A stretch of DNA of 64,000 nt from Schmidtea polychroa (lineage: Eukaryota): assembly GCA_044892525.1 (NCBI GenBank), contig CM097887.1, positions 74,028,001 through 74,092,000 on the forward strand, read 5' to 3'. The notes beneath the pieces were generated by a model, which saw only the letters and a list, made by a program, of their open reading frames with translations, made no database searches and was not told the DNA's origin. The position numbers were made by a program, and so were the translations under genes. Shown here piece by piece: positions 6,892-40,247 of the stretch. The number at the start of each line of letters is the position of its first letter. Position 1 is the first letter of the stretch.

Positions 6892-8544
6892 GCCCATAAT
6901 CTAAAAAAAAATCAATAAATATATATTATAGGAAAAATGAAATTAAGTTAACATTGTCATATAAATGGCGACTCACCTCAACTGGTGTGCACACCAACGT
7001 ATATTATAGACAATGTTAACTTTCGCAGTTAGGTGTACAATGTAAATAAATCGTAGCCTTTGATTTAGCTCAGTAGAAATTATTTCCAACAGAAAACTAT
7101 AATTCCCAAATAGATTCCACCGCTATAAATAGATTAATTAGAAATTTAAAAATTAATTAATTATTCTTTAATTTTTTTTCAATTTTTTAAATATCTTTTC
7201 TTTTTAAATTTATTTTATATTTTTTTATCACTTTTTTAATTTTTTTGTACTTTTTAATAATTTTTATATATATTTTTTAATTTATTTTAATTATTTCAAC
7301 TAGGGGACCGAAATTAAAGACGGACAAATAGCATCTAGCGGTGGTCCACAAACCCGCTCGATTGCTCGATGATTATATTGTACACAGATACGCTAACTTT
7401 TCGCGAGTATTTACCCATTCGACACATTTCCAACTTTGATCATTCTGGTTTACACTGGAAACTGCACAAGGTGTTTAATGTTTATTACCTATAACCCAAC
7501 AAAATATTACTTTTTTAATTTGACATTGCGATTGTGTAACATCTAATTTAATAGTTTTGTGATTTCTTTTTTACAAGTTCCTGTCACTCTGTACGCGAAA
7601 CTATATATTAAATTTTAATTTTCCAGTTTTATATCAATGACAGAAATGCTGCCGTTGTAAACTATTTAACAAATTTCATCGGATGGTCATCTATTCAGAA
7701 ACATTTGTTCCAGATGTTTGCATTTGTCCAGTGTTTGATTTGTTTGGATCTAGTTTGGAAAATCTGTCTGACATTACTATCAGTGTTCCAGTTCCAAGAA
7801 CCTTTCCATTTTTCTTGAACCTTACCTTAAAGTTGTTTCTTCGAATCACAACATCTTGAAAATTATGCACATTATGCACATCCTTGCTGCAGCTGATCAA
7901 TAATGTGAATCCAAAAACAACAAGTGGTTAAACAACCCTTATCTCTCAGACATTGTGAGTGAGACTCTTGAATACTCTCGATCTCTTTTATTTTTCCCGA
8001 CCTGCAATTTATAAATTGATATCCAATCATGTCCTACCTGGCGCACTGAATCATTTGTTCGTTCGGACAGTTATGAGCTAAATAATTTTCGTTACAAAAA
8101 CATTTAATATTTTTCATATTTAAATTAAATTTTCTTTTTATATCGACTTATTGTCTTGAGTGAAATTCAATCAAATTCAATTCAACCTCTCCAATTGTTT
8201 CAAGTATATTTGGACCTTGATGTTTGACTTTGGCTGTCATCTCTTTAGGTAAAGTTTTATTGACGATGTTCCCCAATAGACATCCAGTATTGCCAGCCAA
8301 ATTTTTCATCTCCGATAAATAAATGATGATGCTTTTTCCAGCTTGAAATGACTTACTCATCAGTTCGTGGGAACAAACTTCTGAGAAATCACTAAATGTT
8401 CGAATTAATGCTTCCTTTGCTTATTCATGTTATTTCTTCATTTTGAAAAACCCCTTTCATTGAAATGAATGCCTTCCTTTTCAACGTATAGGGCAAAATC
8501 CTCTTTTTAATCATTATATCTATGGTATCGACATAATTAATCAA

Positions 8545-8738
8545 TGAATTTATTAAAAAGAGAACTTGAAGACTATAAATCAGTAATATATCGATGTTTG
8601 TTGATACTCACGAATTTTCGGCATTGCATTTTTCAAGAAAATTCACTTGAAAAAGGCAGTGCCGAAAATTCGTGAGTATCAACAAACATCGATATATTAC
8701 TGATTTATAGTCTTCAAGCTCTCTTTTTAATAAATTCA
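8545..8738. repeat. Near-perfect 194-bp palindrome (93-bp arms, 8-nt loop)
   Basis: Arm tgaatttattaaaaagag...cgaattttcggcattgcatttttcaag, loop aaaattca, then the reverse-complement arm. 3 mismatches counted by eye. Confidence 0.95.
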
Positions 8739-8789
8739 ATGGGAAAAATAATCAGTGGTGAAATTGGAAGAAATAAAAGTTCTTATAAT

Positions 8790-9880
8790 TGTTAGGTTCG
8801 ATGGGTATGTCTTCGAACTAACACAAAAATGTTCTATCTGACTCCACGTAAATAATTTATGCGCGTAGGTATAAATAAACAAGAAATATGATTTAAATAT
8901 TTATTTTTCAATTAAAAGATTATTCACACGTTTAAATAGATATATATATATATATAGGTACACCACGCTGCTTTCTCTAAGTATAGAAAACGGTTATTCA
9001 AACCGCCCTGAAGAGTGTTACTAAGTATCAAGGCTGGCCCTAAATGCGCCAACAGCCCGATATAGGTGAAAGGAAAAAGAGAACGGGACAATCACCAAAA
9101 TTTTCGCTATAGAGTTAACCCAGAAATTGGTTAACTCTTTTCAAATAATTATTGATAACGACACAACACAAAAATACGTGCTGACGTTATGATACCCCTT
9201 ATTTGAAATTACTTTAATTTGTTAAAATATAAACCGATTTGAAAATTACTTATAACTATTTAAATAATGATAAATACTAACTGATTTAATATCTTTACCA
9301 AATAACGTTATAATAGATAATCCACAAAATTAGCTTTCGATCCAATATTTCCAATACAAATTCTTCAATTTGATTGTCGATAAGACTAAATTCCCAAAAA
9401 TTCAAAACTAAATTTTCCTTTAATCGATGAAAATTATGCCAACTGTCACTTCGCCGAAAAATTAGTTTACGATAAAACCAAATTTCCCAAAATTCCAAAA
9501 CCTGACGAGAATTAGTTGGTTGCTAAAAATAGAATTGACTTCTTCTTCTCTAATTTCAGACACTGCGGTTTTCTGCCTTCTCACTTCGTCCCTCCTTCTA
9601 ATTTTTATCTATTATTTATACTAATTTATTTTACGTAATTCTATTAATAGTAATTGTTTAATTACTATTTTTATTATATATTTTAAATAATTTCTATAAT
9701 TCTATTTTTAGTAATTATTTATTACCAATTATATTTTAGTTTTAATTTTAGTATTTACTTTCTATTTTTGGTAATTTTAAAATACTATTTTTATTTTAAT
9801 CCTAATTTTGGTAATTAATTATTATTTTATTTATTATCTAATTTCGAACGTTTATTTCCGGTTCCTACTGAACCCCAACA
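8790..9880 (-). repeat. 3' LTR (1091 bp)
   Basis: Identical by eye to 22634-23738 except (TA)8 vs (TA)15. TGTT...AACA termini. Confidence 0.97.
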
Positions 9881-9882
9881 TG

Positions 9883-9892
9883 TCTTCCCCCT
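9883..9892 (-). promoter_or_regulatory. Polypurine tract (AGGGGGAAGA)
   Basis: Minus-strand purine run ending 2 nt before the 3' LTR. Confidence 0.8.
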
Positions 9893-10185: not shown

Positions 10186-12348
10186 CTAGTATTTTCTCCT
10201 TTTCATGACCTTGGCACTTTCGTTACGGATCCTTTGTTCTACAATGTCAGGTCTGTAACTGACCACCAAAGTCTCCCGTGTACTTACCTCTTTGTACACA
10301 ATTGAGGAGATGATATATGAGCCCTCATTAGCCTCCAATACTCCGTAATCGGGGAAATTGGATACGGCTACTTCATGGATTGGGCCTCCGTCGTATTCCT
10401 TGATACGCGGTTTCCATTTGCTGTCGGGTCTCTGCCACCAACTAGGATCTTCTCTGTCGAGATCTTCCCGTATTTTGATTGAGTTGCCCCTTCCGACGAA
10501 CTCGCCTTCCTTCACGATGATCGGCTCTCCTGTAATCGTGGGTTCACTCTTTGTTGCCAATATCTTGGTCAACGCGGGATCTGGTGGCTGATAGTGAGTT
10601 TCTAGGAGATTGTCATCCTCATCCTGGATGGATATCCTAGGCATTTTCTTTTTCGTACTCTTAGGAATCTCCTTTTTCCTTTTTGCGGAGATAGGGACAG
10701 TTTTCTCCTTGTCCTCTTTCTGGGGGAGTTTCTCCGTTGTTTTCTTTTTAAACTTCAAATCTTGTAGCTTAAGTAATGGTGCTACAGCTTGGGGTAACGT
10801 TCCTCCTTCTGCTCCTTGTTTGGGTTCACCCAACGGGGCCAATGCTTTCAGGATCTTGGTGACCCGTTCAACTAACTTTTCTGCTGGCTGTGGTTTGTCT
10901 ATTTCCATTTTAGCCGAATTCACCTCTCTACCGTCATTGGTAAGGGTGACTTGGAGGCAGTTATCGTCTGCACTCTCACAAGTGGCATAGTCGTCTTCAT
11001 CAGCAATTGAAATGGCTGGCGGCGACAAGGAATCTTCTTCCACTATTTTCAACAACTTTGACCTGGGGATATCTTCTTTCACATAGCTCTCCATAGCTAG
11101 AGGTTTCTGCCTGCTTGAGGTTCCGGGTTCCATCTGCTTTATTTGTGAAGACACCACCTCTTTCCGGGTGTCTGGTGAAATGTCATCAACCCAGATATCT
11201 CGTAAATTGTCGTAAATCTCCTTAATGGTTGTGACATCATTCTCCGTTTGTAGGTCCGAGAAGTGATGTGCCTCTTTACCGGTGACTGCTTTTGCTAGAT
11301 ATGCCAAACGGTAATACCCGTTGCATTTCTTTAGTTCCCTACTTTCGAGGCATTTAGCTGCGCCTAACTCACGAATTCCGAGTGCGCGCTGCATTGGGAA
11401 TCTGATTACTTCTAATAGGTCCTTTACTAGTAATCCCACGATGATCTTCCCATCGCAGATTTTTCTAATTCTTTCGGCACAGTCTTCTCCGTCGAACTGT
11501 CCTGTTATTTGTTTCTCGGTCATACCATGCGCATGCGATTGGTAATGTTTGACCTGTGCTCTGGGGGTGACTCTCGTGTTGAGTATTAGATCACCATTGA
11601 AGTGTGAGATCGAGATGGCCACGATTGCCGGTTTCAAAAATTGTCGTAATGTAGCGTAGTGAGCTGCTACGAAGATGGTGAGGTTATCCTCTTGTCTAGG
11701 GTCCATGCGCTGTCTAACGAAAGACTTGAATGTTTTAATGTCGTTATCGTTGACATTATATGTCCAGTTTGGGTCATTAACCCATCTCGTTTGTGTTTCT
11801 CTGTGAGGTTCCAGAATTTCCATTGCTATGATGGTATCTATACCTTCACATAACAGTGAGATGTTCTTTTCCCTTCCATCCCCGTTTTCTATCTCGAGGG
11901 TTGTGTGCTTTTGCAGCAAAATGGGGTTTGTGGCGCCAGGAACATAAACCGTAAATGGTTTGTTAATGGCGTGTATCCACAGGTGGTTGGTCAGACTATG
12001 TCTGCCAAACTCAGGCATGACATCGGTAAGCCTAATACTACCGTTATGCTTACCCGGGATTCTTGAGATGATCATTTGACGCTTTGGGGCCTCGTCAAAT
12101 TTAAAATTATTGGGTATGCCTGAACAATGACCGTAAAACCAGTGCCTTTGGCCTTTTCTACTTTGCTCCATAACCTGCTTCTCCAGGTTTTTATAAATAA
12201 GTTTTTCTTTTAGTAAGGTTGTAGCACGTATAATGCTATGTTTTCCTTGATATTGGGATATTGGGTGGCTCTGCATTCCTGAAATAAAAATCATTAACCA
12301 TAATATCAGATATACTGATATGCCATAATAGGCTAAAAAGATATGCAT
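10186..12348 (-). CDS. Accessory ORF (720 aa): N-terminal hydrophobic segment, DEDDh exonuclease-like domain (about 11190-11685, catalytic residues degenerate), long acidic/basic tail
   Basis: Intact 720-codon ORF inside the element. AISISHFNGDLILNTRVTP...VKHYQSHAHGMTEKQI...KICDGKIIVG...RLAYLAKAVTGK...ENDVTTIKEIY follows the ISG20/REX4 sequence pattern. Confidence 0.7.
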   Translation of the reverse strand: MHIFLAYYGISVYLILWLMIFISGMQSHPISQYQGKHSIIRATTLLKEKLIYKNLEKQVMEQSRKGQRHWFYGHCSGIPNNFKFDEAPKRQMIISRIPGKHNGSIRLTDVMPEFGRHSLTNHLWIHAINKPFTVYVPGATNPILLQKHTTLEIENGDGREKNISLLCEGIDTIIAMEILEPHRETQTRWVNDPNWTYNVNDNDIKTFKSFVRQRMDPRQEDNLTIFVAAHYATLRQFLKPAIVAISISHFNGDLILNTRVTPRAQVKHYQSHAHGMTEKQITGQFDGEDCAERIRKICDGKIIVGLLVKDLLEVIRFPMQRALGIRELGAAKCLESRELKKCNGYYRLAYLAKAVTGKEAHHFSDLQTENDVTTIKEIYDNLRDIWVDDISPDTRKEVVSSQIKQMEPGTSSRQKPLAMESYVKEDIPRSKLLKIVEEDSLSPPAISIADEDDYATCESADDNCLQVTLTNDGREVNSAKMEIDKPQPAEKLVERVTKILKALAPLGEPKQGAEGGTLPQAVAPLLKLQDLKFKKKTTEKLPQKEDKEKTVPISAKRKKEIPKSTKKKMPRISIQDEDDNLLETHYQPPDPALTKILATKSEPTITGEPIIVKEGEFVGRGNSIKIREDLDREDPSWWQRPDSKWKPRIKEYDGGPIHEVAVSNFPDYGVLEANEGSYIISSIVYKEVSTRETLVVSYRPDIVEQRIRNESAKVMKRRKY

Positions 12349-12471: not shown

Positions 12472-13527
12472 TCATAATTGCGACATCAGTACTCCATCGT
12501 AAGCCCTTATGGCTTGTCTAAAATATAGCTTGGTCCAAATACCCATAGCTATCAGTGTAGTTACTAGCGATAGTACGGCCGATACCGTAATCCATACCCC
12601 TATGGGTATTTTCAGAATATATCCAACATTAAAGTTCGTGATGGCATTACAGTCACAACAGTTTGTCAGATTTGGGGGCGTTTGGCAAGATATTTGTTGG
12701 ATAGGTGGCAACTGTCTAAGATGTTGCCACATTGCGGGATGTATCACCATGTTCTCCTTGACGACTTTTGGTGGTGTTTTCGTTATAACAGGTTGTCTCA
12801 GAGGTAATATCTCCTCAAATACCTCGAACCACCTATCGTCCTCCCGTTTCCTCGGACTATAGTATATAACTAGAACCGAATATTCTACGGACTGATTTAG
12901 ATACATTTCTTGGGAGGGGGAGTTCTGATCTAACCATAATGTTCCTCTCGTGGTAGATCCGTCTAGAATGCTGATTTTCACCTTCTCCTCCCTGTTAATT
13001 TGCTGGCTAAACTTTACTTTCTCCTTCTCGTAGGATATCGATATGCGATTTGTGAAATCTGCCGTCCGTAGGATCCAATTAGATACGTGATAGGTATACC
13101 ACCCACTCTGATATAACTTTGATGCTGCAATATGCAGTTTATAATCCGTCTCGGCTTTTAAATCATATAAATCCCACTCTTTTTCTTCTGAATCGAGTTG
13201 GCGGACCCGCAAGTACTTGTTGTAGAAATGTAAACTGAATTTTGTGGCATTATCGCACGTTGTCAGAATGCTAATTCCGTTATACGTTCTTATAAAGTGT
13301 AAATGTTTCACTTGCATCGCCATAGGCTGAAAGTATGCCTTTCTATCCCTTTTTGCCATTGCCAAAGTCATCATACAGCTTATTATTAACAAAAAGGTTA
13401 CCGATTTTGGAACACCCCTTGATCTCAATGGGTATCGGTGTTCTTGTGGTTTTTCGGTAGTGTTTGGTTTCACTTGTTTTTCTGGTGCTTTTACTTTTGG
13501 ATTTCCAGAGGCTCCCTTTGTTGAGAT
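12472..13527 (-). CDS. Type I membrane protein (signal-like segment 13404-13354, FN3-like ectodomain motif, TM 12603-12535), in frame with integrase behind a TAA
   Basis: RYPLRSR then SVTFLLIISCMMTLAMA|KRDRK; LYDLKAETDYKLHIAAS; Cys cluster CQTPPNLTNCCDC; TM IGVWITVSAVLSLVTTLIAMGIW. The frame is open from the integrase stop onward. Confidence 0.75.
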   Translation of the reverse strand: MSTKGASGNPKVKAPEKQVKPNTTEKPQEHRYPLRSRGVPKSVTFLLIISCMMTLAMAKRDRKAYFQPMAMQVKHLHFIRTYNGISILTTCDNATKFSLHFYNKYLRVRQLDSEEKEWDLYDLKAETDYKLHIAASKLYQSGWYTYHVSNWILRTADFTNRISISYEKEKVKFSQQINREEKVKISILDGSTTRGTLWLDQNSPSQEMYLNQSVEYSVLVIYYSPRKREDDRWFEVFEEILPLRQPVITKTPPKVVKENMVIHPAMWQHLRQLPPIQQISCQTPPNLTNCCDCNAITNFNVGYILKIPIGVWITVSAVLSLVTTLIAMGIWTKLYFRQAIRAYDGVLMSQL

Positions 13528-14600
13528 TTAGCACTTTTTACACCGATTAGCATGCACCATTATTGGTTCTGCTTTTCTGTTGGCCACCAGTTGTAATATG
13601 AGATTTGTATCCGTGGTTCTCAATACCTCATATGGCCCTTTGAAATTTCGCATGAGTTTTGGTGATAAGCCTTTCTTGTTATAATGACTTTCCAACATCA
13701 CCTGGTCTCCAACCAATATACCATGATCCTTGGCTTTTCGGTCATGATAATCTTTGGATGCCTCCTGATTATATTTTATACTGAGGCCTGCTCTAGCCCA
13801 TGCTTCCTGCATTCTTTCCCGCATTTCCATTAGATAATCTTGCTGATCCAAGTACTGTGTTGCTTTAGGAAAAAACAACAGATCTACTGGCATTTTACTT
13901 TGTCTCAAATACATTAGGTAAAATGGTGTTTCACCTGTTCCTTCGTGTACTGCATTTCTATATGCAAATAAACAGGATGGAATGTGGATATCCCAATCCG
14001 TTTGCCCTGAATTTACATATGATGCTAACATATTAGCTAATGTTCCATTAAATCGCTCTACTAGCCCATCCGTCTGTGGGTGATATGGGGAAGTGTTCAA
14101 CTTTAAAACTCCGAAATAATCATTTATTCCTTTGAGCAAATTACTCATGAAATCAGCTCCCCGATCCGTTAATAGCTTCGTAGGTACTCCATACCTAAAG
14201 ACAATTTGTTCAACGAAAATTCTAGCTATCGTATCAGCTTTGTGATTAGGTATCGGGTAGGCTTCTGGCCACTTAGTCAAGTAGTCACAGAACACTAAGA
14301 TGTACTTGTTTCCGCTATTGGATTCTTTAAATGGCCCCAACACGTCCATTGCCGTCATTTCCATAGGTGTAGATGGTACTGGCATCGGCTTCATTGGCAC
14401 GTGTGGTTTCTTTCCGGTATTTCTTCTGGTGATACAGATCTTACATGTCTGACATCAGGTTTTAACTTCTTGTTTCATGCCGGGCCAAAAATATTTTTGT
14501 TTTAACCTTGACAATGTTTTTCTGGATGACAGGTGGCCTCCTAAGGCTCCATCGTGATACTGCAACATGAGTGCTTCACGGTATTTCTTAGGGACCATTA
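13528..14600 (-). CDS. Integrase (HHCC zinc finger, DDE core, GPY/F), split by an in-frame TGA at 14455-14457
   Basis: YHDGALGGHLS...EVKT*CQTCKIC; TAMDVLGP, LTDRGADF, DGLVERFNGTL; FKGPYEVL. 14454-14401 is an open 18-codon in-frame link. Confidence 0.95.
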
Positions 14601-17600
14601 CAACATTGTCTCTTACATCTGAATATTTGACTAATCCTTCCTCCAGCACAAACTTGTCCTTATTCTTTTCCCAGTATTTCGTGAATTCTGTGGGCACGTA
14701 TTTCGCTTCTAAGGCTTGTCGAATGACATTGATTTCTTCGTCAGCTTTTTGTGCCTCCATTAAATCAGCTAGCCGGTTGGCTTCTCGAGTCAGTGTGAAG
14801 ATAGTCCCTTCGAGACGTCCTTCCTTCACATCTTCTGCCTCCTCCTCCTGGTCCATTCTTGATAAAGCATCTGCATTTCCATTGTGATCTCCTTTTCTAT
14901 AATGGATTTCTATGTCATATGGCTGTAGAATTAATGCCCATCTGACCAGTTTTGATGTATCCATTGTGTGTTTCGTCAACCACTGTAATGGTCTATGATC
15001 GGTATACACTATGATCTTTCGACCCCATAGATAAGTCCTAAACTGGGTTATTGCATACACAATTGCTAAAGCCTCTAGTTCTATCACTGCGTAGTTTCTT
15101 TCATGCGGTTTTAATCCTCTGCTAGCGTATGCAATTGCATACTCATCTCCTAGGTCATCTCTCTGACCTAGCACAGCACCTATGCCCCGAGTGCTGGCAT
15201 CTGTCATAACCAAAAATTGTCTCTCAAAGTCTGGAAATCGCAATATAGGTGGCTTGATGAGTTTTTCCTTGAGCATATCAAATGCTTCTTGCTGTTCTGT
15301 TCCCCACACAAATTTGACATTTTTGCCTTCTAACTGCGTGAGTGGAAAAGCTATAACCGAAAAGTTTCTAATGAATTTTCTGTAGTATCCAACTAGACCT
15401 AAAAACCCTTTGATATGTTTAACGGTTTTAGGCTCCGGGAAATTCTTTACCTTTTCGACATTAGCTGGGTCGGGTTTAACCCCGTCTCGTGATATGATAT
15501 GGCCAACATATACCACTTCTGGTTCGGCCCATTTACATTTGGTCGGTTTCACTTTCATGTTGGCGTTAATCAACCTCTTGAACACATCTTCCAAATGTTC
15601 CAAGTGTTTTTCCAAATTTGGCGAGAATACTATAACGTCGTCAATGTATACCATCGCATGATGTACATCCATGAGCATCAAATTCATTGCTCTTTGAAAT
15701 GTGGCTGGAGCTCCGGTGAGTCCAAATGGCATTACGTTATATTCGTAATGACCCATACTCGTAGAAAACGCTGTTATTGGTATAGTCTCATCTTTTAGCT
15801 TAATTTGATAAAATCCCTTTTGGGCGTCCATTACTGAGAAGAACCTAGCGTTTCTCATGCGTCCATAGATATAATCTAACAATGGCAATGGATGGCTATC
15901 TTTGCATGTTGCTTCGTTAACCATGCGATAGTCGTTACATAATCGTACTGATCCATCCTTCTTGGCCACCACTATCATTGGTGATTGATATGGTGATTTA
16001 CTATGCCTGATTATGCCATGTTTTAACATCAGTTTCACCTGTTTATCTACTGATTCCTCCAGACTGAATGGAATACGGTATGGTCTCAACTTTATAGGTT
16101 TTGTATTGGTGAGAACAATCTCATGTTCTAACAAATTTGTCTTTCCCAGATCATATTCATGTTTCGCGAATACCTGGTCATATTTCCTCAATAACATATT
16201 TACTTGAATATTTTCTTTTCTAGTTAGCACTTTGCTGTTTACTGTAGGTGCATCGTAGTACTCAATGTCTGGATCTCTTTCTTCTGCCTTTACGGTGAGT
16301 ATTGACCCTTCTCCCGTAGCTTGTGGTTCGTTTTGTTTCCAGATTCTGCCCACTCTGGTATCTGGATATAAGTAAAGTGGTTTAATGTCCAGATTGGCTA
16401 CCCTGATTGGTATTCTGCCATTGACTATTAAACCTACGCTATGCGTTACTGGTATATTGTATTTCTCCGAGAATTTTTCGTTTGGTTCGAATACAACTTC
16501 ACCTTCCCAATTATTGCTTGTAGCTACAAAGCAAACTGTTTCCGCTCTGGGTGGTATGATAGTTGTATGATCTATATAAGCTGTATCATCATTGTAAATT
16601 TTTCTCTTTTTACCTCTCGCTCGGATTAACAATCCAGATGCACAGTCGAATACTACTCCTCGTAGTCTTTTTAGGATGTCCATACCCAATAGGCATTCGG
16701 CTGGGAGACTTCTCATCACTATGATGTCGTGATGGAGTTCCTGGTCGCATAGCTTAATCTGGCAGGATAATGATCCTATTACGTTTAATGAGGATCCGTT
16801 CGCTCCTGTTAATTTTACTCCTGCCGGTTTTAGCGACTGCAGTTCATGATGGTTTAACAATTTAGCTTCAATTATGGTACCGTCTGCTCCTGAGTCTATC
16901 ACCGCATTAACTGTATGTCGGTTCACTCTTATTTTTATCATTGGTTTTTTTTCCAAGTTCACTGGGTTATTGACCATCAAGATAGTATCGTGCGAGATAC
17001 CGATTGTATTGGCTCTCGTTTGTTCTGCTTCCAGTAATTCAGGATCACTCAGTTGGGGATTATACTCTTTGAATTTAGCTTTAATTGACTCTAACACTTC
17101 CTTTGGATAGTGCACTTTAAGTAATTCTGGCAATGTTGAGCATGTCAAATTATTAAATATGGTATCTTCACCGATTTTCCATTGGTGTCGTCCTGTTCTG
17201 AGTGTTGTTTCCCTCGAGTGTTCCCGCCCTTCGTTTGGTGCGGATGGTAAACTCCTCAAAGTTGGCAATTGTACGTATCTTGGACTTCTCTTGAATCTGG
17301 GTGACCTTATGTCGAATTTTTGGTCGGAACTGTCATATTCTCCTTCTGAGGACTGTTTTCTCACATAGATTTCCTTTGATTGGTCATATGGAGGAAGATA
17401 TTCCTTGAATCTCGATTTTCTTTGTTGCTGATTCGGTTTTTTGTTGTAGTTCTGTTTTCGTGATTGATTTGATCTTGAAGATGTCTCACGAGAGCCTCCA
17501 TTACCTCCTCCCTTTGAATTGTTATCGTCCCGATAACTCGAATACTCCTCCATTTCTGTTCCAATTACTTCATGTTTGACCAAATGTTTCTGTCTAATTT

Positions 17601-20600
17601 CTTTAATTTCCTTTCTGTGATGTTTGAATAATGCAAACTCTGCACACATAGGACATAGTCCTAATAGCAATTTCCATGACCATCCCCCAATTTTGAATAT
17701 GCTATATGTTGACATCAGTTGTGTAATTATCAGCTTTAAAATTACAAATATTGCGTAAATTCCTGAACAACCAGCAACGAAAATACCAAAATTGGTAAAT
17801 CGTCCCCATATTTTCATCATTACGTTCTTTGCTGCTTCTTTATAGTGTTCCGGTCCAAATAATAGATTGTAGTCTGGTCGTATCAAATTATCATGATAAA
17901 TTGTTCTTATAATTTCCGTGATACCTCTGTCTCTAATTTGTGGGAATAGCAATGTCCTTCTTGCTTCCTCGATATCGTCGGGAGTGTAAATCCCTCCTTT
18001 TGCTAAATCGTCTAATGACTTAAATTCCAGATTATCCTTTAATTTAGTTACCTCCAGGGTCTCTACCCGTTGTGTAGATGGTTTTCTTTCCGGCAGAGAT
18101 ATCCACATGTCATTTATTTTATATAATGGTGATATTGCCGGGTTGCATATAGCTGGTTGAGGTTTAGCGTTTTCCTCAAGTAACTTTCTGGTTACTGGCA
18201 TAACAAATCTCAATTTTCCTTGGTAAGACACTGGCAGTTCTAGAGTGCATTGATTAAATCTGGCTAATTGTACTTCCACTGGTTTACACTCATAGCTATA
18301 TATAGCTTCTCCCATGATTCTGCCAAACATTCCATCTTCCAATAACATTGGAGTAACCAACTCTGGGTTAACGATAGATATTGCTAGTCTATTTCGGACT
18401 ATTTCACGGTTTAGCTTGCAATCGTTTAGTATCACCTCTTGATACATATCTTGCATTTGTCCTTGCAAATCATGATATAAATAATCTACCTTATTATTTA
18501 TATAATTCGTGATTTTGATATCCTTTACATGTAGGACCTTGGAATTCCGGATATATTCTCTGGACAGGAAAATTCCTTTGTAGTTCGTCTCGTATACTCT
18601 TTTCCCACATTTAGTCCTTTTATCTTTTCGGACAAATCGAATTGCTTCCGTCTTGTCTTCCGATATCAATACTAGAGGTGTGTTTTCCTCTCCGATATCT
18701 TCCTTCTCTTGTTTGTTGATTTTCTTCAACGTTTTTGCTTTATCCCAAACCTTTTCTGGATTCTGGGAGTCCCGATATTTAGTTCCATTTAATTTTCTAA
18801 AAGGAATTTTCTTGAGGAAAGCCAACTCACAATGATCTCTCATTTGTTCGTAAATTAACGTAGTGGTTCCCGTTTTACAACTACCGAACTTGGCATTGCA
18901 TTGCGGATGTGCCATCAATTTTCCTGTGGCCACATCGAATGTTCCCTCGTATTCTCGTAGCTCCACTGAGTAATCTTCTATGTCTACCACATAGGAAACT
19001 AAATTGCTACCGCGAATTTTCTTTCTACCTTCGCATGTTCCGTCTGAAGCGATTGTTCCTCCTCGGGTGATTGTTATTCCCAAGGTTTTCCCAATTTCTG
19101 CTGAAATTGATACCTCGTTGTCTATCCTCACACTTCCTTTTCGAAATGCATCTAAGCAATCTTCGGGCATTATGTTTACCGGCCTTGGTATTAATGTTGC
19201 GGTTAGAAAAGCAGAATAGCTATTACTACCGCAATAATATTCGAACGTAGCTCTCTGAACTCTACATTCCTTTATCGTGGTTCTATAAAATTCACTCTCT
19301 TGGTAGACATAATATTCTACCTTTTCCCCTTGATGAACCTTCTCGGGGTACGCCTCTTTGCACTCAATTGCATCTACTAGCGAATATACCCGAGATAGTT
19401 TAGGGTTTCCACAGTCAAATACTGTTAATGAATTTGTTTGTTTTAATATGCCCATCATCACTAGGAACATCAGGATCATGCTTGTCATGTTTCCTGTGCC
19501 TGGACTACCATTATTTATGGCTTCTTCTACGACTTCAAATCGTGGTTTTGGAATCGTTTCTTTTTCCCAAAATTTGTTTACGGTCATCCATACCTCCAGG
19601 TAATAATCTACCATTTCGACTATTTGATCGATTTCTCGTTCTATAAGCCTTTTATCATCCCCTATCCGGGCCAAGGCATTTTGAATTAACAATGATAAAG
19701 ATGTTACCACTTTCCCTCTTGTTAACCCTTGCTGCACGAATGCTTCTATGACATCCTGGGTATCTCTTGTTGTTACATCTTTGGATACTCTGTCCATTGT
19801 CTTCTTGACCTCTTTTGTTATTTTCTTTACTTCGATCCCCTTGATTTTTGGAATTCTCCATTCGGGCCTGATAATCCCGATCATTTGTTGTATACGTTGC
19901 CACAATAACGACCTTTCTGCTGTTGTCTCATCTCCCGCCTGGTCGTCCATTTCTTGAGCTATCCCTGCTAATGTTTTTAACTGAATTTTCCGAATCGTTT
20001 CCGGATTTAACTGCTCCTTGGGTGGAGGTTTCATCTGATCCTTTCTAGGACGTCCTCGTGCATCTTTTTTCACTTTCTCCGGAGGTTTTTCATTCTCCAG
20101 ATTTGTTACTGCTTGTGACGTAGTAGCTCCTACGTTTGTTTCTCCTGGGTTTAATCTGATGTATTCTGAGAAGTAATCTTCCTCGTCAATGTCCACCATT
20201 TGACAGGGATTAATTTCCTCTAGTCTTATTTCCTCAATTTCTTCCGCAATTTGGTTTGCTATATCTGGCAGTCTCATTAATGACCACTGGGACTCTGGTG
20301 GAGTTACTGGGATGATCATTACCGTGGTTGTTGCCAGCGGTAGACAACCCACATCCACTAAATATTCATCGTCATCCACTTGCCTGCCATGGACCATTAT
20401 CAGGAATATACCTGTAGTCTGATCGGTGGCAATTACATCTCTCCTCAATATTTTAACCTTGATATAGCAATTATAAATCATTGTTAATGGTTCTTTTCCC
20501 ATCATTCGCACGTCTAGATTAATGTTGCCTTGTCTATCAGGCTGACTTCGGATAGCTTTCCCATTTTTCCTCATCAGCGCTTCAATTTGCGTCTGGAATG

Positions 20601-21882
20601 GGCTTGTTTCCTTTACCACTGGTAGTATAAGTGGAATTATTGCTTCCAACAAATCTACTGGTATACGCAATACTAACATCCAGTCAAGTATTTCCTTTAT
20701 AGTTTCTCCATCTCGTGGAGATTTCTGCAATTCCAACCCTAGTCGCTGGGTTAATTGTTGGGTTTCTTCCAATCTCTCTATTTCCATTTGAGTAATCAAG
20801 AATACGCTATCTTGATCCATTACTGCTACTGGCTTCTGTGCTCTCTTTGCTATGAGCTTTGTCACTCTACCTGGGAGTATCCCGTTCTGTAGAAGTGTTT
20901 GATTTGCTTCTAATTTTACTCCACATAAGTATAAGTCATATCCTTGATGCTTAATACTTGTCAATGTTTCCTTTAATTTATCGGCTCGACTTCTTACATT
21001 TATATCGAGATTATACTCTTTATCCTGTGGGAGTTTTATATTGAGCTGGGCATCTTGGAGATCCCACTCATGTTCCAAGAGTTTTCCTAATTTCCTTAGG
21101 ATTTTGTACGTGTCGTTATGATACTTTGGATCATCTTCGACCTGCGATATCAGTTTTACTACTGTATCGATTTCGTGAATTTTAATTTCTGTTTCTCCCA
21201 ATTTTCCCAATTGTCTGGCCAGCTTCTGCTGGTACTCATATCTGGAATCCACCAGTTTTAAACATTTTGTTAGGGTATCTGACCCTTCTTTTACCTTTGC
21301 TTTCCCTGTCAAGGTTCTATCGAACTCGCTTAGTATGGTGGCCATACTAGGTTCATCATCGGAACTCTCCTCTGATTCCGTTTCCTGAAGGTCCTCTCTA
21401 ACGGAGTCCTTTTTTCTGAGATACTCATCTCTTCCAACTTCTACCATGAAGATGGTGCCTTCTTGGTCGGTCAATCTAGCCAACCTATTCTTTTCTTCCT
21501 GGATTTCCATTTCCAGTTGTTGCAGATACGTTAACCCTTGATCCTGGTTAACCATGAAAGTTGTCTTAGACTTGTTCACATTACCCTTATCGGTATTTTT
21601 TTTGAACTGACTCGTGTTTCCACTCTGGTTCTGAGGACATGACCTCATCATATGTCCGAATTTCCCACATCCGTGACATTTTATCTTTCCTGATGAATTT
21701 ACATCATCTCTTTTGATTGTACTAAAATTATTGCTGTTCTGAGGACTTCTAGTCTTGCAGACCGCAGCAACATGTCCCTTTCGCTTACATTTTTCGCATT
21801 GCAAATTCTGCACTCTACAATTTTCCGCACTGTGGTTATTCCGTCCACATTTGGTACATTGTATACTTTTACGATTGTCCAT
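14455..21882 (-). CDS. Gag(NC)-X-Env-Pol polyprotein: 3 intact CCHC knuckles, UBL, unknown region, glycoprotein, aspartic protease (VIDSGA, about 16900), dUTPase-like linker, RT (VYIDD, about 15640), RNase H (TDAS, about 15200), start of integrase
   Basis: 2475-aa ORF with canonical Gypsy motifs PYRIP, LCNDYR, MPFGL..APATFQRAM, YIDD, GFLGLVGYYRKFI, TDASTRGIGAVL, TDHRPL, NADALSR. Confidence 0.95.
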   Translation of the reverse strand: MDNRKSIQCTKCGRNNHSAENCRVQNLQCEKCKRKGHVAAVCKTRSPQNSNNFSTIKRDDVNSSGKIKCHGCGKFGHMMRSCPQNQSGNTSQFKKNTDKGNVNKSKTTFMVNQDQGLTYLQQLEMEIQEEKNRLARLTDQEGTIFMVEVGRDEYLRKKDSVREDLQETESEESSDDEPSMATILSEFDRTLTGKAKVKEGSDTLTKCLKLVDSRYEYQQKLARQLGKLGETEIKIHEIDTVVKLISQVEDDPKYHNDTYKILRKLGKLLEHEWDLQDAQLNIKLPQDKEYNLDINVRSRADKLKETLTSIKHQGYDLYLCGVKLEANQTLLQNGILPGRVTKLIAKRAQKPVAVMDQDSVFLITQMEIERLEETQQLTQRLGLELQKSPRDGETIKEILDWMLVLRIPVDLLEAIIPLILPVVKETSPFQTQIEALMRKNGKAIRSQPDRQGNINLDVRMMGKEPLTMIYNCYIKVKILRRDVIATDQTTGIFLIMVHGRQVDDDEYLVDVGCLPLATTTVMIIPVTPPESQWSLMRLPDIANQIAEEIEEIRLEEINPCQMVDIDEEDYFSEYIRLNPGETNVGATTSQAVTNLENEKPPEKVKKDARGRPRKDQMKPPPKEQLNPETIRKIQLKTLAGIAQEMDDQAGDETTAERSLLWQRIQQMIGIIRPEWRIPKIKGIEVKKITKEVKKTMDRVSKDVTTRDTQDVIEAFVQQGLTRGKVVTSLSLLIQNALARIGDDKRLIEREIDQIVEMVDYYLEVWMTVNKFWEKETIPKPRFEVVEEAINNGSPGTGNMTSMILMFLVMMGILKQTNSLTVFDCGNPKLSRVYSLVDAIECKEAYPEKVHQGEKVEYYVYQESEFYRTTIKECRVQRATFEYYCGSNSYSAFLTATLIPRPVNIMPEDCLDAFRKGSVRIDNEVSISAEIGKTLGITITRGGTIASDGTCEGRKKIRGSNLVSYVVDIEDYSVELREYEGTFDVATGKLMAHPQCNAKFGSCKTGTTTLIYEQMRDHCELAFLKKIPFRKLNGTKYRDSQNPEKVWDKAKTLKKINKQEKEDIGEENTPLVLISEDKTEAIRFVRKDKRTKCGKRVYETNYKGIFLSREYIRNSKVLHVKDIKITNYINNKVDYLYHDLQGQMQDMYQEVILNDCKLNREIVRNRLAISIVNPELVTPMLLEDGMFGRIMGEAIYSYECKPVEVQLARFNQCTLELPVSYQGKLRFVMPVTRKLLEENAKPQPAICNPAISPLYKINDMWISLPERKPSTQRVETLEVTKLKDNLEFKSLDDLAKGGIYTPDDIEEARRTLLFPQIRDRGITEIIRTIYHDNLIRPDYNLLFGPEHYKEAAKNVMMKIWGRFTNFGIFVAGCSGIYAIFVILKLIITQLMSTYSIFKIGGWSWKLLLGLCPMCAEFALFKHHRKEIKEIRQKHLVKHEVIGTEMEEYSSYRDDNNSKGGGNGGSRETSSRSNQSRKQNYNKKPNQQQRKSRFKEYLPPYDQSKEIYVRKQSSEGEYDSSDQKFDIRSPRFKRSPRYVQLPTLRSLPSAPNEGREHSRETTLRTGRHQWKIGEDTIFNNLTCSTLPELLKVHYPKEVLESIKAKFKEYNPQLSDPELLEAEQTRANTIGISHDTILMVNNPVNLEKKPMIKIRVNRHTVNAVIDSGADGTIIEAKLLNHHELQSLKPAGVKLTGANGSSLNVIGSLSCQIKLCDQELHHDIIVMRSLPAECLLGMDILKRLRGVVFDCASGLLIRARGKKRKIYNDDTAYIDHTTIIPPRAETVCFVATSNNWEGEVVFEPNEKFSEKYNIPVTHSVGLIVNGRIPIRVANLDIKPLYLYPDTRVGRIWKQNEPQATGEGSILTVKAEERDPDIEYYDAPTVNSKVLTRKENIQVNMLLRKYDQVFAKHEYDLGKTNLLEHEIVLTNTKPIKLRPYRIPFSLEESVDKQVKLMLKHGIIRHSKSPYQSPMIVVAKKDGSVRLCNDYRMVNEATCKDSHPLPLLDYIYGRMRNARFFSVMDAQKGFYQIKLKDETIPITAFSTSMGHYEYNVMPFGLTGAPATFQRAMNLMLMDVHHAMVYIDDVIVFSPNLEKHLEHLEDVFKRLINANMKVKPTKCKWAEPEVVYVGHIISRDGVKPDPANVEKVKNFPEPKTVKHIKGFLGLVGYYRKFIRNFSVIAFPLTQLEGKNVKFVWGTEQQEAFDMLKEKLIKPPILRFPDFERQFLVMTDASTRGIGAVLGQRDDLGDEYAIAYASRGLKPHERNYAVIELEALAIVYAITQFRTYLWGRKIIVYTDHRPLQWLTKHTMDTSKLVRWALILQPYDIEIHYRKGDHNGNADALSRMDQEEEAEDVKEGRLEGTIFTLTREANRLADLMEAQKADEEINVIRQALEAKYVPTEFTKYWEKNKDKFVLEEGLVKYSDVRDNVVMVPKKYREALMLQYHDGALGGHLSSRKTLSRLKQKYFWPGMKQEVKT
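17626..19488 (-). CDS. Embedded envelope glycoprotein domain, chuvirus (Jingchuvirales) G / herpes gB-like class III fusogen
   Basis: Internal signal-like MILMFLVMMGILKQTNS|LTVFDC, Cys-rich ectodomain, GEAIYSYECKPVEV...CTLELPV...RFVMPVTRKL...CNPAISPLYKINDMW, GGIYTPDDIE, C-terminal TM FGIFVAGCSGIYAIFVILKLII. The family call is recalled motif similarity, not a search. Confidence 0.8.
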
Positions 21883-21927: not shown

Positions 21928-22533
21928 TCAATTGAAACACTCTACCGGTGTTCTTTCACTGTTTACCAGGAACATGGTTGACTTTTCCAAGCTGCTTTCA
22001 ATTACGACAGCTTTCCGTGTCAATTCGTCAAAATCGTCGCTAGTATGTAATATTAGAGCGTTCCTCATTGTAGGAGTAAGTCCTGCCCATAGCTGATCCT
22101 TAACTAACAATTCTGTTGGCTTTGCCCATGTGGTTTTTGGTCCAAATGCTCTTTCAGCAATTAAAGATAGCTGGTGTGCAAATTCCCCCACATGTTCATT
22201 GGCATTCTGTTTTCGATGGTAAAATTGTTGTCTAAATATTCTTCCCGCATCTCCGGGCAATATTCGAGCAGTCATTTGTTCTCTCATTTCGGCCCATGTT
22301 TTCGGTACTTGAGCAACTGGTAATGCCATAATGTCATTATATTTTTCTCTTGCCAGCCCCTTCAAATATATAGGCAGCCTTTGTATCATGATATTATCTG
22401 GATAGGCGTATGCTTTGGCCATCTGATAATATTCAGACATAAACTCTGGGAATTCTCCCGGATCACCGCTGAATGCCTTTACGGGCAGAGCGGGATATCT
22501 GGCAAATGCATTTACATTAGCTTCCTCTGCCAT
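21928..22533 (-). CDS. Gag capsid domain (retrotransposon gag), ending at an in-frame TGA inside the first zinc knuckle
   Basis: PVKAFSGDPGEF...LPIYLKGLAREKY...RKQNANEHVGEFAHQL...DQLWAGL. Reading on through the stop gives CFN*HRKGHIAKDC, in frame with 21882. Confidence 0.9.
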   Translation of the reverse strand: MAEEANVNAFARYPALPVKAFSGDPGEFPEFMSEYYQMAKAYAYPDNIMIQRLPIYLKGLAREKYNDIMALPVAQVPKTWAEMREQMTARILPGDAGRIFRQQFYHRKQNANEHVGEFAHQLSLIAERAFGPKTTWAKPTELLVKDQLWAGLTPTMRNALILHTSDDFDELTRKAVVIESSLEKSTMFLVNSERTPVECFN

Positions 22534-22610: not shown

Positions 22611-22630
22611 GAATCACGTCGGGCTCACCA
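22611..22630 (-). promoter_or_regulatory. Primer-binding site complementary to the 3' end of tRNA-Trp
   Basis: Minus strand TGGTGAGCCCGACGTGATTC, 3 nt after the 5' LTR. The complement GAATCACGTCGGGCTCACCA matches the metazoan tRNA-Trp 3' end (…AATCACGTCGGGGTCACCA) with 1 mismatch. Confidence 0.85.
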
Positions 22631-22633
22631 AAA

Positions 22634-22781
22634 TGTTAGGTTCGATGGGTATGTCTTCGAACTAACACAAAAATGTTCTATCTGACTCCACGTAAATAAT
22701 TTATGCGCGTAGGTATAAATAAACAAGAAATATGATTTAAATATTTATTTTTCAATTAAAAGATTATTCACACGTTTAAAT

Positions 22782-22816
<35 letters not shown>

Positions 22817-23738
22817 TACACCACGCTGCTTTCTCTAAGTATAGAAAACGGTTATTCAAACCGCCCTGAAGAGTGTTACTAAGTATCAAGGCTGGCCCTA
22901 AATGCGCCAACAGCCCGATATAGGTGAAAGGAAAAAGAGAACGGGACAATCACCAAAATTTTCGCTATAGAGTTAACCCAGAAATTGGTTAACTCTTTTC
23001 AAATAATTATTGATAACGACACAACACAAAAATACGTGCTGACGTTATGATACCCCTTATTTGAAATTACTTTAATTTGTTAAAATATAAACCGATTTGA
23101 AAATTACTTATAACTATTTAAATAATGATAAATACTAACTGATTTAATATCTTTACCAAATAACGTTATAATAGATAATCCACAAAATTAGCTTTCGATC
23201 CAATATTTCCAATACAAATTCTTCAATTTGATTGTCGATAAGACTAAATTCCCAAAAATTCAAAACTAAATTTTCCTTTAATCGATGAAAATTATGCCAA
23301 CTGTCACTTCGCCGAAAAATTAGTTTACGATAAAACCAAATTTCCCAAAATTCCAAAACCTGACGAGAATTAGTTGGTTGCTAAAAATAGAATTGACTTC
23401 TTCTTCTCTAATTTCAGACACTGCGGTTTTCTGCCTTCTCACTTCGTCCCTCCTTCTAATTTTTATCTATTATTTATACTAATTTATTTTACGTAATTCT
23501 ATTAATAGTAATTGTTTAATTACTATTTTTATTATATATTTTAAATAATTTCTATAATTCTATTTTTAGTAATTATTTATTACCAATTATATTTTAGTTT
23601 TAATTTTAGTATTTACTTTCTATTTTTGGTAATTTTAAAATACTATTTTTATTTTAATCCTAATTTTGGTAATTAATTATTATTTTATTTATTATCTAAT
23701 TTCGAACGTTTATTTCCGGTTCCTACTGAACCCCAACA
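22634..23738 (-). repeat. 5' LTR (1105 bp)
   Basis: Direct repeat of 8790-9880. The 14-bp length difference is entirely in the TA microsatellite. AATAAA on the minus strand at 22744-22749. Confidence 0.97.
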
Positions 23739-27700: not shown

Positions 27701-30700
27701 AAGAAGAATACAAAACCGCCACGATTAAAACAAATGATAACCAAATAGTCGTAGAAATAACAACAAATATTTATAAAGAAAATCAACTACCGACTTCAGA
27801 CCGAAAATTTCCAAGTAAATTATTAAAGATTCTAAATTAGATGAAAGTAATGTTGCAAACCTTTAGATAAAAATCTAATTGAAACTTCCATTGAACAAAC
27901 TGAAGATGAAGTCGAAGCTGAAGAGTCAACATATCCGGCTGTTAAAAAAACCCTAAAAGAAATTTGCGCCCAGTATAAATCATTAGAATCGTCCAAGATT
28001 CCGAAACTATTCATGGACTTGGTAAATCAATTAAAGAGCTTGAATTCAAAGGAGTTTAAAGAACTGTATCTGGACATTCAAAAATCCGATATCTGTCCCG
28101 AAAAAGCCACGGAAATAAAGTGAAATATTTGATTTTTCTTCGAGAAATTAATTTCTTTTATTTAGATCGGTTTTCTACGACGCTTCCGGATTCGTAAACA
28201 CTCAATCTTCGATATCAGTTATGGTCGATCTAATAAAAACTTCTCAAATTTCACTATTTGATCAGAACATTTGGCTAACATCCTTGTCTTTCATGCAAGA
28301 AGCTCCGACAATTGAAACATTGAAAGAACTCGAAACAATTGTTTCCGTTGCAAATCCCAACACTCCATTGTTTCTCAGTCTGGGTTCGCTGACTCATCTT
28401 TATTGCAAAGAAGATCCGAAATCGTGTCTAACTGATCCAACTATTGCCAGTATAGTTTCAAAATTTCTTCACAATCTTAATGAAGATTGCTCGATTCCTA
28501 AGGATGCAACCGATGATCACGTCACCAAAATACAAATATCTCTCAAAGGTCTTGGTAATCTAAAATACTACCCAGCGAACGTTATTAAAACTCTTAACAA
28601 ATGCATAACCAAGGACACTAATAAGCTATCAATCAGAATCAGTGCATTGGAGGTCATGAAACATATGGACTGCAAACAAGACGTAATTTTTTTCTTCATG
28701 AGTTTATTCTCAGTTTAATCCATTTACGGATAAATATACCCTATAGTAATAAAACATATTTAACATCGAATCACAACTCATTGACTTAACAAAAATGTAT
28801 CAATGTAGATAATTTATAGCGGCATTGACTTTCCAAATTATTTTTTATCAAATTATAAACTGAAATAATTAAAGCCATCAATTAAACAAATGCATTTTAC
28901 GAACACTTACGAACAAAAACAACATTTTTAAAATAGCCATTTGGAGAAATTGAATAAATTATGCAACATCGATAGTGAAAACTTAATTTTCAGATAGCAT
29001 TGAAATATAAATGTCATGTTGTCGATTAAAAATAAAAGTTAAGGTAAACTTTCAATTTTACTTATGCCGACTAAATTTTCAATTGTAGGTCTAAAAATAT
29101 TTTTTTATTATTATAAATCTTAACCAAAGTCTTTATAAACGTTAAAGGATTAAACTGAAGTGCAAACATTAAATTAATTTTGTAAATAAATTAAATTCAT
29201 TTATTTTAGCGAACAAATGCCTTGAATATTTTGCTCAATAACGAAAATGACTCAGAACTGAGAATCAACGCCTATTTAACTGTAATGGGCTGTTCCGATA
29301 TCAATACTCTTTTCAAAGTCCGAGAGGTATTATCCAAAGAGAAGGTCAATCAAGTAGGGTCATTCATTTGGACACATCTTACAAACATCAAAGAATCAAA
29401 TGACCAGTTAAAAGTTAACATAAGAGAATTGTTAGACAATGTCGATTTAAAGAAAGAGTTTGACATTAGTAAATTGAAGTTCTCCAGAAACATTGAAAAA
29501 ACCTTCGAGACAGTCAATTACGGAGTTAATTTCGATTCCAATGTTATTTTTTCAGAAAAGTCTTTTGTACCTCGATCAGTGTCATTAAATACAACTGCAT
29601 CAATATTTTCTAAATCGACAAATTTCCTTGAAATGTCTGCACGACTTGAAGGTTTGGAAGATCTTCTTTTCAAGTTACTCGGACCAGAAGGCTATCTAAA
29701 GAAAGCAAAAGGTATTCAAGATAACCTAGAGTTAATTAATATACTGAATGAGATGAGTGGTAGTGTAAACATCAAACTGTTTGGAAATCAAGTCTCATTC
29801 ATTGAACTAATACGAGGAACATTAACTTCAATCAAAAAATACAATATCATTGAAGAAATAATGTATTGGACTCAAGATAAAAGTTTCGATTTCAACAAGA
29901 ATATACAACTCGTAGATAAGACTGTAGTCATTCCGACATTATTGGGATTTCCATTGAAATTCAAGTTACAAGGGTCAGCAGCGATAAACATAAAGATTAA
30001 ATCCAAATTTGACGTAGCTGGATTGGTTAGTTGGCCAATATCCATGAATATAGACAATTATATTTCTCCAAATATCAACGCAGAACTTCATACGGAAATT
30101 GTTTATCAAACACCTTTCACGAGCTACGGAATGAGAATGAAGTTGAAATCAGGAACAAATACAGAATTCAAGGCAACAATATTCACCAACAAAAACGAAG
30201 AATTATCTTTAAAATTTGACAGTCCCAAAACTGTTCAGAATATTTTTTCAGTAGAAGGAAACGCATATGTAATACATAGAGATAAAGAAATTATTCAATT
30301 ACAGGATAAATTAAAAGAAACCAAATTGTGCACATCAGAAATGACGGTGAGGCTTTTGGGAATAAGAGTCTGTGGAGAAGCCAAATTACTGGATCCTTCA
30401 ATTCGTAAAGATACACTTCTTTTTGGACCATTTGCCGCAAAAATATTCATTGCAAAGATAGACACTCAAACTGAATACATTCTTCAAGCCTCGGCGAAAA
30501 CCTCGGCATTCATTTCACAAACGGGAAAAGTATACACCAACCGCCATATTAAATTCGAAATCAACACACCTAATTCAAGGTATTACGATCGAAGGTTTTA
30601 TGGAGAACTTATGATGGACTTCAAACAAAAAGACTTCAAATTAGAACTCGTTACACCATGGACCGACGCACTTGTTTCTGCAAGACTAAAACTAACTGAC

Positions 30701-39700: not shown

Positions 39701-40247
39701 CTATTAATTAAATATGATCAATTAAAGCTATTCGTTGATGGAAAGTATCTGAAGAATTTCTGTACCGTTGAAATGGCATTCCAGCAATCAACAATTTCTC
39801 TGATAATAAAATCATCCAATAAAATGTTTGAAAAAATACAATTAATGATTTCAGCCAATAAAATGAGTTTCGGAATCGATCGGTACGGAACTCCTTACAC
39901 AATAAAAACCGAGTACGATTATTCTCCAAATAGTGTTCTGATTAAAATGAACTCGTCATTTAAACAGTTGTCAAAATTCACTCTTCATGTTCAACCGAAT
40001 CAAATCAAATTGGAACTCAACGAATTCCACCAACAAATCGACTATATTCTCACCCAACACCATGTCAAACTTATTTCCATAAACAACTTCCAACCAATCC
40101 GCTATATACTCTGCGAAGTTCTTATTGAAAATCCCAATAATGCCATGTGGAAACTGACTGTTGATTCTTTCGACACGGTATCGAAAATAAAATTCACAAA
40201 CGATAAATTAAGTTTTGAAAATCGAAACAACTATTTCCGTGTCCGGT
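24734..40247 (+). repeat. First unit of a tandem segmental duplication (visible part; partner is 48487-64000, offset 23,753 bp)
   Basis: All ORF-track entries recur at exactly +23,753. Only scattered substitutions and no net indel were seen. Confidence 0.97.

Follow-up and report, generated by a model that had tools for sequence, protein, structure and literature searches.

The element and its genes

The window, i.e., the whole stretch of 64,000 nucleotides that was analysed, carries on its minus strand a Ty3/gypsy element of 14.9 kb. This is a recently active, env-bearing element of the gag-env-pol type and is related to published planarian errantiviruses. Its features, including the domains encoded by its last open reading frame (ORF4), are as follows.

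22634..23738 (-): 5' LTR (TGT...ACA), with a 4-bp target duplication, TAAT (LTR alignment)
22611..22630 (-): primer-binding site complementary to the 3' end of tRNA-Trp (sequence match)
21928..22533 (-): gag capsid region; its final stop codon is in the polyprotein frame (Retrotrans_gag, E = 5e-4, not reaching the curated cut-off)
13528..21882 (-): polyprotein with zinc knuckles, Monjiviricetes-type env, protease, RT, RNase H, and integrase (Pfam)
12472..13527 (-): ORF3 frame with signal-like and C-terminal transmembrane segments, in frame with integrase (no Pfam match)
12279..12300 (-): splice-acceptor-like site (T-rich tract, then CAG), 2 nt ahead of the likely start ATG of ORF4
10186..12348 (-): ORF4, the 3'-most ORF of the element, with 720 aa when counted from the first ATG; likely true start Met25 at 12276
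11785..12273 (-): double-stranded beta-helix domain of the 2OG-Fe(II) dioxygenase type (AlkB/prolyl-hydroxylase-like), devoid of the HxD/E...H triad (model folded alone)
11179..11751 (-): ISG20/REX4-type DEDDh fold in which four of the five catalytic residues are replaced (profile, structure model, realignment, copies)
10186..11150 (-): charged linker and C-terminal region with a basic KRRKY end (sequence, pN/pS)
8790..9880 (-): 3' LTR, with a polypurine tract ahead of it at about 9883-9892 (LTR alignment)

TG...CA LTRs, a target duplication, a primer-binding site, a polypurine tract, and the order protease, RT, RNase H, integrase assign the element to Ty3/gypsy. In full, its genes and domains are arranged as gag, zinc knuckles, env, protease, RT, RNase H, integrase, ORF3, ORF4. 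Since gag and pol are separated by a class III-type fusion glycoprotein, it is assigned to the GAG-ENV-POL type (fold class after PMC13524379). By Pfam, this env (Monjiviricetes_fusion, E = 5e-87) is located between the zinc knuckles and the protease, and the RT is matched with E = 1.6e-32. ORF3 may code for a second surface protein.

The two LTRs differ, over 1109 alignment columns, by one mismatch and one gap. The family is abundant, with at least 152 matches (150 scored of 1132 candidates), and many copies are 95-100% identical. The polyprotein of the window copy contains in-frame stops at 14455-14457 and 13528-13530, which are missing from 33 of 34 and from 36 of 36 aligned copies, respectively; the window copy is thus broken. 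Its ORF4 is nevertheless open, as had been stated in the original prediction, which was made from the sequence alone.

The likely start of ORF4 is Met25, the position at which homologues start (seen with P0003); codons 1-24 show few variants and no clear selection. A T-rich tract followed by YAG is found 1-11 nt ahead of the likely ATG in seven of the eight families examined, from which we infer that ORF4 is made from a spliced subgenomic mRNA. Contigs from four runs span the element, none of which is on record as RNA, and an acceptor joint was not among the best 15 of 56, which is uninformative either way. The KRRKY end of ORF4 could possibly act as a nuclear signal.

Two observations concern the surroundings and the primer of the element. 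Just outside the 3' LTR, an inverted repeat of 96 bp (8542-8741) is 96% complementary with an 8-nt spacer. The primer tRNA is encoded by tRNA-Trp(CCA) genes that are repeated in tandem with a period of 284 bp, in an array that begins on C4 at about 55.02 Mb; the tRNA-Trp pattern has 821 matches across the genome, and of the first 100 listed, 99 belong to this array.

The exonuclease-type and beta-helix domains of ORF4

A captured ISG20/REX4-like DEDDh exonuclease which appears catalytically dead had been predicted at 11190..11685. The four peptides quoted for it all are within the single minus-strand ORF of 720 aa at 10186-12348 (P0001). The location proved correct, but the domain is somewhat longer (about 11179-11751).

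The relationship is faint when ORF4 is used on its own. Pfam gave no match for the 720-aa protein itself, ISG20L2 was matched only weakly by the single sequence (E = 0.015), and a pairwise test against a named REX4 resulted in E = 5e-6. A word-seeded homologue search with ORF4 alone returned 0 matches from 4227 candidates, and four proteins when the alignment was used; the ESM Atlas gave just RNase_T leads below 0.9 for ORF4 and nothing for its beta-helix part. A phmmer search with ORF4 against 1.84 billion representatives retrieved 80 proteins, many of which have Pfam RNase_T matches. The family profile that was used for the comparison with the ISG20 group (71 rows) matched ISG20L2 with E = 1.6e-30, ISG20 with 8e-19, SDN1 with 3.7e-16, and PAN2 with 0.003. 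The AlphaFold model of ORF4 residues 26-403 (pLDDT 93, pTM 0.90) has ISG20L2 (E = 5.8e-9) and ISG20 as its best Foldseek matches, and its alignment with ISG20 by VIA-align covers 162 residues with a Z of 18.3 and an rmsd of 2.9. Both profile and model thus reveal a DnaQ/RNase H-like fold that is closest to ISG20/ISG20L2, in support of the predicted fold. Arenavirus NP, which had been named as a viral parallel, was absent among the 50 fold matches listed, and a resemblance is still possible. The NP domain works as an active nuclease, so that the parallel is a loose analogy.

The DEDDh motif set consists of ExoI D-x-E, ExoII D, and ExoIII H and D (PMC9157404). Upon realignment with 17 REX4 homologues, the D-E-D-H-D positions of ORF4 are occupied by Ala228, His230, Leu311, Leu366, and Asp371. 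The canonical set is absent, and only the ExoIII Asp371 is kept. The original description of a lost ExoI D-x-E and of an ExoIII His replaced by Leu next to a retained Asp is thereby confirmed. It had missed the loss of ExoII, the fused AlkB-like beta-helix domain, the retroelement setting, and the existence of sister families whose motifs are intact. An Asp (Asp310) does occur next to the ExoII position, out of register by one residue. In ISG20, Met14 and Arg53 contact the ribose 2'-OH (PMC9157404); their equivalents in ORF4 are Tyr231 and Gln270, so that these contacts are not kept, and the GH-motif His is Leu306. The 2'-OH contacts of ISG20 are mostly missing from family members with intact motifs also. 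The median net charge of the exonuclease domain is +3 in family rows with lost motifs (dead rows) compared to +7.5 in REX4. By descent, the domain belongs to the ISG20/REX4 group; by its catalytic positions, it does not qualify as an active member of it. The feature is real, and its reading as a pseudo-nuclease is well supported.

The N-terminal part of ORF4 (residues 26-188), when modelled alone, folds into a double-stranded beta-helix with a pLDDT of 92. The model shows eight strands and an N-terminal helix, with strand numbers assigned from its secondary structure. The best fold match has a Z of 10.6 (rmsd 3.7, 141 aligned), and the 32 highest-ranking matches all represent 2OG-Fe oxygenase-type or uncharacterised chains. 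The subfamily cannot be named, because prolyl hydroxylases (P4H) and several ALKBH proteins tie at a Z of about 10 and Foldseek mixes cupins with oxygenases. A relation to AlkB at the sequence level was not detected by any sequence method tried, including Pfam. The motif of 2OG-Fe(II) dioxygenases comprises an HxD/E...H triad and an Arg on strand VIII. Both parts of the iron triad occur together in 0 of 47 rows, the triad is missing from family members with an active exonuclease motif too, and no strand-VIII Arg was found at core positions 172-177. Conserved instead are Glu/Asp177 (47 of 47 rows) and His126 (42 of 47); judged from the AlkB topology, these two could face what would presumably be the cofactor cavity of the modelled fold.

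Relatives, copies and selection

From 105 collected sequences, 13 partial ones were dropped, leaving 92 with a usable exonuclease domain, 19 of which are REX4. D-E-D/E-H-D is intact in 38 of the 73 family rows; another 33 are dead, and two could not be read. None of the five positions is kept in 22 of the 29 fully readable dead rows (ExoIII Glu was scored as not kept). Genomic context covers eight of the 73 rows. In the seven loci of the same genome other than that in the window, gag, env, and pol are found upstream in four, a part of them in two, and ORF3 alone in one; three of the seven, representing sister families, have intact motifs. In the REX4 gene of the host itself, the motifs are intact.

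In a first tree, from a quick search, 32 of the 33 dead rows grouped together (support 98). This single origin of the dead state was gone in a second tree of 81 rows, from which 21 motif columns, eight long branches, a host exon, and the two unreadable rows had been removed. There, the dead state requires four changes, at least two of which are forced by supported branches; the catalytic motifs have thus been lost at least twice in the family. With the motif columns removed, the window protein is within an all-dead clade of nine (SH-aLRT 95), the library members of which match ORF4 at about 24-35% identity. The element family is split from REX4 with support 99-100. When the tree is rooted with REX4, the intact state comes out as basal, which places capture before loss. 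The exonuclease was indeed captured, as predicted, not by the window element but in an old event in the ancestor of the whole family. The outgroup consisted of REX4 sequences, and the donor subfamily may be REX4, ISG20L2, AEN, REXO1, or SDN.

Two further dead members were noticed. The protein at L047:6413-8185 (-) represents an independent motif loss inside an otherwise intact clade (support 97), and library protein P0021 has a long repetitive acidic tail.

Residues that are specific for the element family, being absent from REX4, are still found in dead rows: R263 in 32 of 33, D286 in 31 of 33, R326 in 30 of 33, and W386 in 26 of 31. Some of these may build an interface between the two domains.

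Copies of the element were examined as the full-length top of the 152 matches, which are 79 besides that in the window. At the first ExoI position, 77 of these have Ala, one Ser, one Glu, and none Asp; the ExoI Glu is found in 0 of 79, ExoII is Leu in all 79, and ExoIII has its His in one and its Asp in 78. Because the motif loss is fixed across these copies, it is not damage to a single copy.

Variants present in at least three of the 79 copies were counted as shared and compared with private ones. Shared variants passed through replicating elements, whereas private ones mostly arose after insertion. In the dead domain, shared variants comprise 12 nonsynonymous and 80 synonymous changes (pN/pS 0.04) with no stops, compared to a pN/pS of 0.71 and nine stops for private variants. 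Near-duplicate loci among the 79 could inflate the shared counts; the result was unchanged at a threshold of at least five copies and in a subset of 40 copies for which the upstream regions were matched. In this subset, pN/pS is 0.04 for the exonuclease domain (Fisher p = 2e-7), 0.02 for RT, 0.03 for RNase H, and 0.02 for integrase. Other parts of ORF4 have values of 0.06 (beta-helix), 0.12 (linker), and 0.06 (C-terminal part) in the subset, and of 0.06-0.08, 0.11-0.12, and 0.06-0.07, respectively, over both sets of copies; ORF3 is highest among the regions tested (0.14). A pair from a second dead family has a dN/dS of 0.02-0.04 at near-saturated dS, and dS is saturated in three between-family comparisons.

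Both ORF4 domains are thus held by selection almost as tightly as RT. The fact that pN/pS is 0.04 in the dead domain, compared to 0.02-0.03 for RT, RNase H, and integrase, indicates a selected pseudo-nuclease rather than a relic, and the claim of a pseudo-nuclease stands with strong purifying selection added to it. We consider it very likely that the exonuclease domain of ORF4 is under selection without performing canonical catalysis. A neutral relic, open merely since the copies are young, could be argued from the near-identical LTRs and the many copies of 95-100% identity, but it is hardly tenable and was rejected on the contrast between shared and private pN/pS, the shared variants being overwhelmingly synonymous and stop-free, and the fold persisting across a deeply diverged dead clade.

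Possible roles of ORF4 and comparison with known systems

We propose that the fusion of a REX4/ISG20-type DEDDh exonuclease with an AlkB-like beta-helix domain took place in an ancestor of the family. In the lineage of the window element, neither domain has retained its canonical catalytic set, yet both are preserved by selection. ORF4, translated from the putative spliced message, would act by binding. Candidate surfaces are those common to active and dead members and absent from REX4 (TPR263, D286, GIRD/EL 324-328, and W386xD388); the His126/Glu177 pocket would be a second one. Its most likely job would be to shield the RNA of the element, or to occupy a host factor of RNA decay or of a small-RNA pathway, such that transcripts survive to be copied. 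That ORF4 is an accessory protein with two non-canonical domains which shields from, or jams, host RNA surveillance has in our view about an even chance of being right.

The original prediction had already suggested an RNA-binding decoy against host surveillance, which we retain as a hypothesis. It is somewhat weakened, because the 2'-OH contact positions are Tyr231 and Gln270 and the GH-motif His is Leu306. Canonical binding of RNA 3' ends is doubtful, since the 2'-OH contacts are missing in the window protein and in most intact members. As family-only residues persist while these contacts are lost, the conserved function probably is not a simple reuse of the old RNA pocket. The modest net charge of the domain also counts against jamming of surveillance, and the low pN/pS points to a stable constraint, unlike the fast change that is often seen in antagonists. 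The comparison of family-2 copies bears on the same question. Copies L048/L049 and L050/L051 are 93-97% identical over most of gag and 95-96% in the RT core, compared to 84-89% in env and 69-81% in ORF3/ORF4. This suggests that a 3' cassette was swapped, or that modular recombination occurred, between these copies; the apparent swap would fit a conflict with the host, with one pair only to suggest it.

Most gypsy elements replicate without an ORF4-type gene. This, and the apparent exchange of the 3' cassette between lineages, make it unlikely that ORF4 is a non-catalytic replication cofactor which protects cDNA or RNA ends, or aids assembly of the particle or pre-integration complex or nuclear entry, without acting on host defence. 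Such a cofactor would nonetheless agree with a constraint equal to that on the core enzymes and with the basic C-terminus of ORF4. The RNA-specific Arg is missing from intact relatives, which raises the possibility of DNA as the ancestral substrate, and auxiliary roles in replication have been proposed for DEDDy ORFs (PMC5408684).

It is rather improbable that ORF4 is not dead at all and uses a re-built non-canonical site, composed of Asp371, Glu369, Asp310, and His230 or located in the His126/Glu177 pocket. A re-built non-canonical active site has been reported for Maelstrom; in ORF4, 78 of 79 copies retain the ExoIII Asp, Asp310 is only one residue off the ExoII register, and Glu/Asp177 and His126 are conserved in the family. 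The replacements vary among dead rows, though, with 22 of the 29 fully readable ones keeping none of the five positions; His230 is not conserved; and the two halves of the iron triad are not found together in any of the 47 rows.

Poxvirus C16/C4 use a dead 2OG-oxygenase fold. By analogy, ORF4 might bind proteins and antagonise a host pathway that does not involve nucleic acids (cell death, stress, innate signalling), which we regard as quite improbable. Vaccinia C16 is among the fold matches of the beta-helix, but its Z of 8.3 is no better than that of many cellular oxygenases, and the protein is linked to nucleic acid by the complete nuclease site that roughly half of the family members retain. 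Modules related to apoptosis and ubiquitin are known from Burro elements (PMC6431247), and a sister polyprotein has a weak Bcl-2 match (E = 0.006). The latter concerns residues 405-437 of L042:2828-6688, is below the cut-off, and is located just before env, as in Burro (PMC6431247). A Bcl-2-like stretch that was suspected by eye in the window polyprotein had no Bcl-2 match in PDB.

Returning to shielding from host surveillance, a wider version of it is tentative and, in our estimate, on the doubtful side. The family would be a widespread accessory-gene family of enveloped flatworm retroelements, combining an RNA/DNA-trimming enzyme with an AlkB-fold reader, which became, on more than one occasion, a double pseudo-enzyme recognising a modified base or RNA end and blocking the host small-RNA or decay machinery. 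If true, this would be a silencing suppressor encoded by an animal LTR element, and a single genome would harbour both its active and its dead versions.

Among cellular proteins, ISG20, ISG20L2, and REX4 (REXO4) share fold and motif spacing with ORF4 and are its best profile and structure matches; ORF4 differs in having lost four of five catalytic positions and the 2'-OH contacts and in being fused to a beta-helix. Maelstrom and EXD1 are inactive DEDD derivatives that kept RNA binding (PMC5408684) and offer a precedent for the proposed mode of action of ORF4. They and Exuperantia (a fold match with Z 10.6) resemble ORF4 in having a DEDD fold without canonical catalysis, but are host genes from other DEDD subfamilies, whereas ORF4 is encoded by an element and has intact sisters.

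Exonuclease genes are known from bdelloid Juno and Vesta LTR elements and from Terminons, the ORF3 of which is an RNase D-like DEDDy protein with intact residues (PMC5408684; echoed in PMC6338049). As in the window element, a DnaQ-like exonuclease gene is located 3' of pol and beside transmembrane ORFs, its activity not being shown in that paper (PMC5408684). In contrast, the rotifer proteins are DEDDy and intact and occur in clades mostly without env (PMC5408684), whereas the window family is DEDDh and REX4-like, is fused to an AlkB-like domain, is dead in 33 of 73 rows, and resides in an env-bearing element.

The GAG-ENV-POL order has been published for errantiviruses from flatworms, nematodes, and bryozoans (PMC13524379) and is also found in Burro/GYPSM1 (PMC6431247). 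Smed_errantivirus_1-6 share with the window element an env between gag and pol; judged by eye rather than computed, the window env is closest to Smed_errantivirus_4 among the six published rows (PMC13524379). The similarity to these elements suggests a planarian host. The terms 'exonuclease' and 'DEDD' have 0 occurrences in the main text of the errantivirus paper (PMC13524379), and the section on Burro lists no exonuclease domain (PMC6431247). Burro/GYPSM1 is about 30 kb long and codes for a polyprotein of roughly 5000 aa with BIR, MATH, and ankyrin cargo (PMC6431247); the window element, at 14.9 kb, has half this size and no BIR, MATH, or ankyrin by Pfam. Gypsy elements from orchids have an extra ORF with a 2OG-oxygenase fold, an AlkB/2-ODD protein of recent origin that closely resembles plant ALKBH and is active as an m6A demethylase (PMC9289625). 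The beta-helix of ORF4 differs from it by having no AlkB sequence match and no iron triad and by its fusion to an exonuclease fold. Troyka was considered as a relative and proved unrelated, having CG termini and no env (PMC12440569).

A REX4-type DEDDh domain, an AlkB-like fusion, or a dead form in such elements was not found in the literature searched; Repbase, the original Burro paper, and subscription journals, which lie outside it, may hold partial annotation. Exonuclease cargo and AlkB cargo are each known separately in LTR elements; their fusion and the dead form appear new.

To our knowledge, few element-encoded counter-measures are known, and how animal LTR elements resist control by piRNA and RNA decay is largely open. 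One genome carries natural versions of the same accessory protein with active and with dead motifs, the dead one under constraint at the level of RT. This provides a ready comparison for what a captured exonuclease does for a retroelement, in a genome that probably belongs to an animal group tractable by RNAi; for the rotifer DEDDy ORFs, this role was left open (PMC5408684). In addition, ORF4 contains an AlkB-fold domain which has no annotation and escapes sequence searches.

Elsewhere in the window, a single open frame of 5252 aa at 29285-45043 (+) has vitellogenin/lipid-transfer domains (Vit_open_b-sht, VWD, C8). The exon upstream of it is duplicated about 23.75 kb later (28221-28718 and 51974-52471). 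ORFs with a Fascin domain and a DDE_Tnp_1_7 transposase fragment, which we take to be piggyBac-like, are found at 972-2025 and 46270-46758.
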